This document shows positions 6,689-13,363 of a stretch of DNA of 64,000 nt, piece by piece (the stretch's first letter is position 1; every line of letters begins with the position of its first letter). A program made the translations under genes and the position numbers. The notes below the pieces were generated by a model, which did not search any database, was not told where the DNA came from, and saw only the letters and a list, made by a program, of their open reading frames with translations. Location of the stretch: contig CP147778.1 of the NCBI GenBank assembly GCA_037305845.1, positions 1,024,001-1,088,000 on the forward strand, given 5' to 3'. Source of the stretch: Candidatus Freyarchaeum deiterrae (lineage in GTDB: Archaea; Asgardarchaeota; Jordiarchaeia; Jordiarchaeales; Jordiarchaeaceae).

Positions 6689-7420
6689 TTACGTTTCACT
6701 TTCTCTTACAGCCTCTTTAAGCTTTGTTATAATGTCTTTTACTTTAACCTTTTTTGGCATCGCGACCGCCAGTAACCTGTCGTTATCGATTTGCAGTGTA
6801 ATTACCATACCTTCCCTACCGGAAATGACAGAGTAATCACTGTTATCATTAGAAATCATATTACTACTTATCGCGAATATAGCGCTAATCATTCCTGAGA
6901 GAGATACTCCTTCTTCTGCGGGGTGCACCATCAGAGGTATCCCCTCTTTGGTAAGAATAGCGATTGCTGTGGCTTCAGGTATTGCATTTTTAACATTTAA
7001 AAATAAACCTTTTTTAGGATATTCTGCTAGTTCTATTATCTCTGCCATTTTGTAGGAAACATTCTGAATTTTGGAAATATAATTTTCAATACCTTTGCTT
7101 TCCGCCTTCTCTCTGTCGAGTAGCGCTGAAAGGACCATGTCGGAGGTAACAGCTAAGGTTATGATCAAATTGTTCTGGGTAAAGGAAAGAATATAATCTG
7201 GAGTCTGGTCTAGCAGTTTCTGAATCATCTGAGATGAAATAGCTAGTAAAGTAGCGCTACTAGCGGCCAGCTTATTCTTATTAATTGATTCGTCTAAGAT
7301 CACCATGGACTCTGACCTCCCCTCCTTACTAATCAGGATTATACCTTTTATGACTTTGTCTTTAACTATTTCTTCTAATATTTTAGATAATTCATTGACA
7401 GGCTCCATTTTAACCACCAT
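6689..7420 (-). CDS. Tandem Roadblock/LC7 domain protein
   Basis: Two repeats of the Roadblock pattern (ILISKEG...LAASSATLL; ILTKEGIP...LSGMISAIF). Confidence 0.75.
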   Translation of the reverse strand: MVVKMEPVNELSKILEEIVKDKVIKGIILISKEGRSESMVILDESINKNKLAASSATLLAISSQMIQKLLDQTPDYILSFTQNNLIITLAVTSDMVLSALLDREKAESKGIENYISKIQNVSYKMAEIIELAEYPKKGLFLNVKNAIPEATAIAILTKEGIPLMVHPAEEGVSLSGMISAIFAISSNMISNDNSDYSVISGREGMVITLQIDNDRLLAVAMPKKVKVKDIITKLKEAVRESET

Positions 7421-12212: not shown

Positions 12213-12812
12213 ATGGTAAAAGGAAAACTCATTGTTTTAGAGGGAATCGATGGTGCTGGTACCACTACTCATTCTAGTAAATTGATGAATTGGATGAAAA
12301 GTAAGAATTATAAGGTCGCTGTAACCGCGGAACCCACAGATGGTACTATAGGTAAGATTATCCGGAATTACCTACGCTCTGGAGGCGGGTCTCCAACGGT
12401 TCATGCACTTCTTTTTGCTGCAGACAGAGCTGAGCACATAGAAAATGTTGTAAAACCCCTTATTAATGAAGGAGTAATTATTATTTCGGATCGTTATGTT
12501 GAATCATCAATAGTGTATCAAGCAGCGGAGGGAGTGGATGTAGAATGGATTCAAACCATTAATAGATTTGCAATTGAACCGGATTTAACAATTTTACTAG
12601 ATGTTGACCCAGAAGTATCTTTGGCCCGAAAAAAAGAAGTCAGAGATGCATTTGAAAATGTTAAATTTCTAAGAGAAGTGCGTCGAATTTATTTAGAAAG
12701 AGCACGAGCGAAAGAATACCCAATCATAGACACAAATAGGCCTACGGAAACTGTTCACCGAGATATTGTAAGATGTGTGGAACACTTTCTACTCAAAGCG
12801 CAGAATTTATAG
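12213..12812 (+). CDS. tmk: Thymidylate kinase
   Basis: EGIDGAGTTT P-loop, EPT, LFAADR, DRY; ATG 12213 after GGAG RBS. Confidence 0.95.
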   Translation: MVKGKLIVLEGIDGAGTTTHSSKLMNWMKSKNYKVAVTAEPTDGTIGKIIRNYLRSGGGSPTVHALLFAADRAEHIENVVKPLINEGVIIISDRYVESSIVYQAAEGVDVEWIQTINRFAIEPDLTILLDVDPEVSLARKKEVRDAFENVKFLREVRRIYLERARAKEYPIIDTNRPTETVHRDIVRCVEHFLLKAQNL

Positions 12813-12835
12813 ATTCTAAAACAAGTGAATATAAT

Positions 12836-12896
12836 AGGCGATGAAGATGAGTCCATCTGACTTGCGGATGAAGAACGATTCGGGCGGTCTGAGCCT
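12836..12896 (+). ncRNA. Box C/D guide sRNA; D guide predicted to target 16S rRNA C1402 (E. coli numbering)
   Basis: AGGC/GCCT terminal stem; C ATGAAGA 12841-47, D' CTGA 12857-60, C' ATGAAGA 12868-74, D CTGA 12889-92; guide CGGGCGGT complementary to universal SSU ACCGCCCG. Confidence 0.85.
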
Positions 12897-12988
12897 CCAA
12901 ATCCATATTCAAATTTTTTATTGAAAAATGATTCAAAAAGAAAACTTCTTGACAAAATAAGGCTTGATTAGTTTTGTGATGTGGATAT

Positions 12989-13363
12989 TTATTCTTCGGA
13001 TAGTAATTCCCCTATTTTATTTGAAGTCTTTTTAAGAACCATGAGAATTAATCCCAAGTTAGCGTCAGTTTTAGCAAGAACCGTGATAATAGCGCTCAAG
13101 CCCGCCCCCTTAATAATAATGTACCCATCATCCCCCTGCAGCAATATTTGTTGCAGGTTCCCACGAACCAGCTCGTGCGCAGCGCGTTCACCAACACTAA
13201 GCATGGCAGCCGTCATAGCCGCAACAACACTCTCATCAACCTCCGCTGGCATAGCAGACGCTATCGGAAGTCCTTGAACGCTGACAACTGCGCTGGCTTC
13301 TATTCCAGGCGTATTTGCCTCCATGTCCCTGATTAGACTCATTATTTCCTCAATTTTCGACAA
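12989..13363 (-). CDS. Roadblock/LC7 (MglB-like) protein
   Basis: ASAVVSVQGLPIAS...VAAMTAAMLSVGERA...NLGLI. Confidence 0.92.
   Translation of the reverse strand: MSKIEEIMSLIRDMEANTPGIEASAVVSVQGLPIASAMPAEVDESVVAAMTAAMLSVGERAAHELVRGNLQQILLQGDDGYIIIKGAGLSAIITVLAKTDANLGLILMVLKKTSNKIGELLSEE

Follow-up and report, generated by a model that had tools for sequence, protein, structure and literature searches.

A box C/D sRNA gene predicted to guide methylation of 16S rRNA C1402 in the Asgard archaeon Candidatus Freyarchaeum deiterrae

A box C/D sRNA gene behind tmk

We found that a 61-nt locus on the forward strand of the Candidatus Freyarchaeum deiterrae genome, flanked by tmk and a convergent roadblock gene, is almost certainly a genuine box C/D sRNA gene, as predicted from its sequence (positions 12836–12896 of the window, the whole 64,000-nt stretch of DNA that was analysed). 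Its D guide probably directs 2'-O-methylation of C1402 of 16S rRNA. The complete host genome, which comes from wetland soil (PMC11291895), is one contig of 3,576,204 bases. The original prediction had described a complete C–D'–C'–D layout with a 4-bp terminal stem directly behind tmk, and we located every box and the stem as follows.

12836–12839, +: 5' arm of the terminal stem (canonical helix of the K-turn), aggc, pairing with 12893–12896
12840, +: unpaired G before box C
12841–12847, +: box C, AUGAAGA, in which A at position 3b gives an A-U instead of a U-U with box D
12848–12856, +: D' guide TGAGTCCAT, 9 nt, with 8 Watson–Crick pairs to host 16S 961–968 and N+5 = A964
12857–12860, +: box D', CUGA, kept in the genus and the sister family
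12861–12867, +: linker, 7 nt
12868–12874, +: box C', AUGAAGA, which varies among homologues (AUGAUGA, AUGAGGA, AUGAAGA and others)
12875–12888, +: D guide ACGATTCGGGCGGT, 14 nt, directed at 16S 1398–1405, plus 1406–1408 past a UU bulge, with N+5 = C1402
12889–12892, +: box D, CUGA
12893–12896, +: 3' arm of the terminal stem, gcct, pairing with 12836–12839

The order of the boxes (C, D', C', D) and the length are those of archaeal box C/D sRNAs, which span 50–70 nt. Boxes D and D' are exact, and C and C' are each one base off RUGAUGA. Both AUGAAGA boxes, which had been singled out as variants, are present, but they are a common variant and no peculiarity of this RNA, because the position-3b A of box C occurs in 10 of 72 homologues and the variant is seen in C' too. 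A 3-nt G-A-U bulge abuts the terminal stem in the standard K-turn arrangement, and the layout together with stem covariation predicts the tandem G-A pairs, 3-nt bulge and terminal stem of a K-turn.

The locus is the only one in the 3.58-Mb genome that combines a stem of at least 4 bp and a CUGA D' box with two guides that each match rRNA over 8 bp; the same joint criteria returned 0 loci in three Markov-shuffled genomes. Within the genus, the sRNA is 95–100% identical, compared with 56–87% for its 60-nt flanks, and this difference indicates that the RNA is under purifying selection. The terminal stem covaried across the 72 homologues, with 265 of 288 cells paired in several pair types, compared with 155 ± 8 (maximum 181) in shuffles, a figure that is inflated by kinship among these homologues.

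The D guide and C1402

The host has a single 16S gene, in which positions 1398–1408 (E. coli numbering) read ACCGCCCGUCG. The D guide forms eight Watson–Crick pairs with 1398–1405, placing G12884, the N+5 nucleotide, opposite C1402. The host's own 16S therefore carries the complementarity on which the original prediction had staked its assignment of C1402. RNAduplex added three further pairs (1406–1408) past the UU bulge, giving −18.6 kcal/mol. This extension had also been suggested, and it agrees with the syntenic orthologues, which do not have the UU and in which the duplex runs uninterrupted to 1408. For the D guides of these orthologues, only 1398–1408 pairs well (−17.9 to −21.4 kcal/mol, compared with about −9.5 kcal/mol at the 1414 site). 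The pattern of archaeal C1402 guides, GA[C/U][G/A]GGCGG-N before a D or D' box, is matched exactly by the orthologues at the same locus, and by the Freyarchaeum RNA with a lineage-specific UU insertion.

In the box C/D RNP, spacer position 1 is unpaired and at most about 10 nt of duplex are accommodated (PMC7229835), a limit that a bulged duplex of 7 + 3 pairs fits. Excluding position 1 by the same rule (PMC7229835) leaves only seven contiguous pairs that count toward C1402. Both guides have a Watson–Crick pair at N+5 (G12884–C1402 for D and U12852–A964 for D'). Each makes 8 pairs, from spacers of 14 nt (D) and 9 nt (D'), and so falls short of at least 9 continuous Watson–Crick pairs and spacers of about 12 nt (Lui et al. 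2018), a target-prediction rule that its authors relaxed for family members and not a definition of the class. Spacers in homologues are 12–13 nt for D and mostly 12 nt for D'.

In the orthologues, C1404 faces an A, and C1404 is indeed the base in their hosts' 16S. The same A was found in 15 of the 69 archaeal homologues listed; Freyarchaeum has G at this position but has added the UU bulge. Imperfect pairing of the C1402 guide may have been selected for. We considered a U1404 variant in the hosts whose guides have A at position 7, but found C1404 in the 16S of every one, which makes the mismatch genuine. The groups with A opposite C1404 are Jordarchaeia, Baldrarchaeia, one Heimdallarchaeota family, Micrarchaeota and Undinarchaeota (loci L023–L030, L054, L058, L070, L072, L086, L090, L094, L098 and L123), and C1404 has been modelled as hm5C in P. 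abyssi.

One alternative, which we regard as unlikely, is that the D guide has been retargeted or works in two registers, the UU and the G at position 7 allowing it to pair with 1411–1422 so that C1414 in helix 44 is methylated instead of, or in addition to, C1402. Host 1411–1422 resembles 1399–1408 with two extra bases, and this register, with N+5 = C1414, is the most stable site in host 16S and 23S (−19.6 kcal/mol, compared with −18.6 kcal/mol for C1402). In a post hoc test, 3 of 88 possible 2-nt insertions, UU among them, reached that stability, and five genomes of the genus and two metagenome contigs share an identical D guide. However, the register contains a C-A mismatch at position 4, adjoining C1414, that every congener has kept and that retargeting should have repaired. 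The 16S of congener G004, an assembly without the sRNA locus, has U1414 and G1421 and pairs at only −14.0 kcal/mol; the 5' part of the D guide drifts freely in other members (L212 and L223); and we found no report of Cm1414 in the literature. We therefore retain C1402 as the probable target.

The D' guide and helix 31

The original prediction had left the D' guide without a target. Its eight Watson–Crick pairs with 961–968, in the helix-31 loop, make this the best site in host 16S and 23S (−13.1 kcal/mol). A match of 8 nt in 16S had a prior of 2.4%, with a shuffle p of 0.036, and is modest support by itself. Three congeners have an A-to-G change in the D' guide that keeps the pairing as G-U. 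The D' guide probably pairs with the helix-31 loop at 961–968. At position 965, the Freyarchaeum D' guide has G and its host C965; Thermoplasmata D' guides have A and their hosts U965.

Methylation of A964 by this guide is conceivable, but we lean against it. The claim is uncertain because the spacer is 9 nt instead of the usual 12; among the 69 homologues listed, no assigned D' spacer is that short and 45 have 12 nt. With eight continuous pairs and an off-length spacer, the rule of Lui et al. (2018) lowers confidence in this target further. In vitro, a D' duplex of 8 bp remained unmethylated at 50–70 °C (PMC7229835), and we found no report in the literature of A964 or C1414 as methylation sites. 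A proposed equivalence of A964 with the orphan Arabidopsis Am1188 was rejected, as numbering offsets place Am1188 near 959. In P. abyssi, 16S positions 966, 967 and 1402 are modified (PMC7005279). Both predicted targets of the Freyarchaeum RNA flank the P site.

The wider family supports the helix-31 pairing independently. Among the 69 archaeal homologues listed, 32 have D' guides toward 16S 900–968: 12 at the helix-31 stretch, 10 at helix 27 (900–908) and 10 at 914–921. Such loci include L056, L082–L084, L117 and L118 at helix 31; L057, L071, L077, L103 and L116 at helix 27; and L047, L068, L069, L121 and L122 at 914–921. This recurrent target zone surrounds the central pseudoknot and helix 28. 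In one case, a helix-27 D' guide changes along with its host rRNA. The D' guides of the sister family are AT-rich, are not conserved with Freyarchaeum and have no good 16S match.

Taken together, these predictions suggest a stand-alone archaeal box C/D sRNA gene whose transcript would bind L7Ae, Nop5 and fibrillarin. The D guide would position N+5 on C1402, leading to sugar methylation of this decoding-site base, and the D' guide would probably pair with the helix-31 loop, the other modified P-site element, where its pairing may serve only as a tether or chaperone.

The latter possibility can be extended to the whole RNA, which would then hold the helix-31 loop and the 1398–1408 strand while the 30S subunit assembles, one or both guides directing little or no methylation; we judge this no likelier than the C1414 register. 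The non-standard spacers of the Freyarchaeum RNA speak for it, as do the recurrence of imperfect D duplexes with A opposite C1404 and the clustering of partner guides around helices 27, 28 and 31. Chaperone roles have been proposed for other sRNAs (PMC4644070). Furthermore, Pyrobaculum sR25 pairs with the C1402 stretch with a conserved N+5 mismatch (PMC6009581), so pairing there need not mean methylation. By contrast, the Freyarchaeum RNA has four intact boxes and a Watson–Crick G-C at N+5 (the homologues provide no test of this pair, because the search that found them used that core). In addition, methylation of C1402 occurs in all three domains, and some members can do without the 5' pairing. 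Guided methylation of C1402 accordingly remains our preferred reading.

Distribution across archaea

A strict pattern matched 13 of 400 Asgard genomes (control 1). These 13 genomes belong to the host's order, apart from one from Baldrarchaeia and two from a single further family, of which one carries the label Heimdallarchaeota. Scanning all GTDB species gave 84 matches, and 69 of the 80 listed were archaeal-type sRNAs. These at least 69 archaeal homologues, found by their common GGCGG D-guide core, come from Thermoplasmatota (including DHVE2), DPANN (Micrarchaeota and Undinarchaeota), Korarchaeia, Thermoproteota, Nitrososphaerota and a few Asgard groups. The 11 bacterial matches among those listed were set aside as chance-like, being mostly without a stem or D' box, as was the single viral-contig match, in GC-rich coding DNA.

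A looser pattern matched 42 of the 400 Asgard genomes, with control matches too, and none of the 22 new loci that we inspected by eye had a clear full C/D layout. Both patterns depend on boxes close to consensus and overlooked further sRNAs in the host genome itself, so non-detection in other Asgard genomes is not absence. We also rejected the idea that this is the only C/D sRNA in the host genome, as the scans that yielded this locus alone required RUGANGA and candidates exist with AUGAUGU, AUGAUUG, AUGAUAA and AUGAAGC boxes. Further host candidates with non-consensus C boxes lie at genome positions ~1,371,003 (+), 1,437,584–1,437,655 (−), 1,740,045–1,740,115 (−) and 483,320–483,400 (+). Our literature search, made largely without subscription journals, found no paper on Asgard C/D sRNAs.

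A broader reading would make the RNA a member of an ancient archaeal family that joins a C1402 guide to a second guide repeatedly aimed at the 16S neck and P site (helices 27, 28 and 31), and would have the shortened D' guide and 2-nt longer D guide of Freyarchaeum shifted to new sites, with A964 methylated and a switch between C1402 and C1414. As a whole, this chain is somewhat less likely still than either alternative above.

The original prediction had taken the RNA for an Asgard counterpart of the eukaryotic guide. A special counterpart of this kind is not what we found, given that the guide spans many archaeal phyla, that expressed archaeal versions have been published (PMC4644070 and PMC5389701), and that 387 of the 400 Asgard genomes had no strict-pattern match.

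Neighbourhood, promoter and machinery

The surroundings of the sRNA contain the following features.

12213–12812, +: tmk (thymidylate kinase), the upstream neighbour (PF02223, E 3e-51)
12795–12813, +: putative promoter, a purine-rich BRE-like stretch (12795–12805) and TATA-like TTTATAGA (12806–12813)
12914–12919, +: oligo-T run, a possible archaeal terminator
12989–13363, −: Roadblock/LC7 gene, the convergent downstream neighbour (PF03259, E 3e-15), syntenic

The sRNA orthologues lie behind tmk in both families of the host's order, the sister family being placed in Jordarchaeia by named matches. The TATA-like element sits 31 nt 5' of the sRNA, and the promoter stretch overlaps the tmk stop codon. 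A [C/T]TTAT core preceded by purines, 29–33 nt 5' of the stem, was present in all 12 Jordarchaeia and Baldrarchaeia homologues examined. In congeners G003 and G005, where tmk stops about 100 nt sooner, the TATA-like element is still present, outside tmk, which argues that the element is not a by-product of coding sequence. We infer that the sRNA has a putative promoter of its own. The oligo-T run may, tentatively, be a terminator; congeners have T-runs 3' of the sRNA, but these do not align.

No Rfam family matched in the window at gathering score, and the weak matches below that score were archaeal sR models, through the boxes only. The folding z-score of the sRNA was −0.19; a low folding score is expected for C/D RNAs, which are stabilised by proteins. 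Although these two results and the off-consensus C boxes would suit a chance arrangement, a decayed pseudogene or part of a 66-codon antisense ORF (12755–12955), such origins are very improbable given the conservation above the flanks, the covarying stem and the conserved promoter-like element, and the ORF was rejected because the antisense frames vary in length and are broken by stops in relatives.

Genes for fibrillarin, Nop5 and L7Ae are all present in the host genome. The RsmI model (TIGR00096) had no match in the host genome; the same model passes its cut-off in 10 of 14 control genomes.

Other features of the window and host genome were recorded in passing. The roadblock gene adjoining the sRNA is single-domain and Pfam-confirmed; a second one in the window (6689–7420) is two-domain, by eye only, and roadblock genes are typical of Asgard archaea. 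The 16S (genome 1,804,896–1,806,517) and 23S (1,836,803–1,839,888) genes are single and unlinked, ~30 kb apart. Relative to a Jordarchaeia 16S, the host 16S has a 90-nt insertion near helix 11 (L001:1771–1860, genome 1,805,166–255) and another of 32 nt in the helix-45 loop, at the KsgA/Dim1 adenosines (L001:3068–3099, genome 1,806,463–494), both of which are probably rRNA introns. ARAGORN called 17 tRNAs genome-wide, compared with 38 published, which suggests that many tRNA introns are non-canonical; its tRNA-Trp call at genome 1,729,295–1,729,446 resembles a tRNA-Met with a D-arm intron. A dispersed repeat resembling the end of a mobile element, its palindromic core rich in GC and by chance containing ACCGCCCG, has eight copies (genome 85,877; 274,941; 276,176; 277,538; 301,943; 3,054,203; 3,055,722; and 3,247,961).

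Implications

With the Freyarchaeum RNA, a complete Asgard genome in which RsmI was not found has a likely source of Cm1402. RNA-guided Cm1402 is widespread in archaea, so it predates eukaryotes and is no marker of an Asgard–eukaryote link. The family of C1402 guides is absent from Rfam, despite its presence in several archaeal phyla, and the leaning of its second guide to 16S 900–968 offers a concrete test of the chaperone role proposed for double-guide sRNAs. C1402 guides were already known in other archaea, and the additions made here are confined to the predicted pairing of the second guide with helix 31 and to the alternative C1414 register. These findings leave the understanding of the box C/D class unchanged.

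Comparison with known systems

Cm1402 has been measured in P. abyssi, as Cm1376 (PMC7005279), and in N. equitans (PMC5389701); Ignicoccus sR11 was named as a candidate guide for Cm1402 (Seistrup et al., PMC5389701). An RNA-seq catalogue contains expressed C1402 guides from Ignicoccus hospitalis (sR11), Sulfolobus acidocaldarius (sR122) and Methanopyrus kandleri (sR114) (Dennis et al. 2015, PMC4644070, Additional file 1). Like the window RNA, all three have a GAUGGGCGG guide with N+5 on C1402. They differ from it in carrying this guide before D' instead of D, in their partner guides, which for M. kandleri sR114 is assigned to 16S U894 (PMC4644070), and in having no UU insertion. Pyrobaculum sR25 and Thermoproteus tenax sR35 share with the window RNA a D-position guide against the C1402 stretch (PMC6009581 and PMC4644070). 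However, both have a mismatch at N+5, are predicted to be non-methylating and have a partner guide at C1349 (alignment numbering).

Rfam sR46 (RF01130), a Pyrococcus sRNA, has a D' guide, AUGAAUCCAAUG, against the same helix-31 stretch as the D' guide of the window RNA. Because the latter is shorter, its N+5 falls on A964 instead of G962; the D guides of the two RNAs are unrelated. The sR46 model (threshold 50 bits) did not match the window RNA up to E 10, whereas Thermoplasmata homologues that join the sR46 D' guide to a C1402 guide reached up to 45 bits against this cut-off. The helix-31 D' guides of Freyarchaeum and sR46 may reflect either homology or convergence.

Yeast snR70, human SNORD43 (U43) and Arabidopsis U43 target Cm1639, Cm1703 and Cm1645, respectively, all equivalent to C1402, as the window RNA would. 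The equivalence of snR70-guided Cm1639 to C1402 had been drawn correctly in the original prediction, and loss of Cm1639 raises frameshifting and readthrough in yeast (PMC2794176). The guide that these RNAs have in common is dictated by the target and is thus no sign of descent. Neither the SNORD43 nor the snR70 Rfam model was among the 21 matches, and the window RNA was unmatched by both even at E 10. Membership of sR46, SNORD43 or snR70 was rejected because none of them scored to the window RNA. Bacterial RsmI makes the same 2'-O-methylation of C1402, but as a protein-only enzyme. By its sequence features, then, the window RNA is predicted to work like the known C1402 guides and to belong to the archaeal C/D class, outside those Rfam families.
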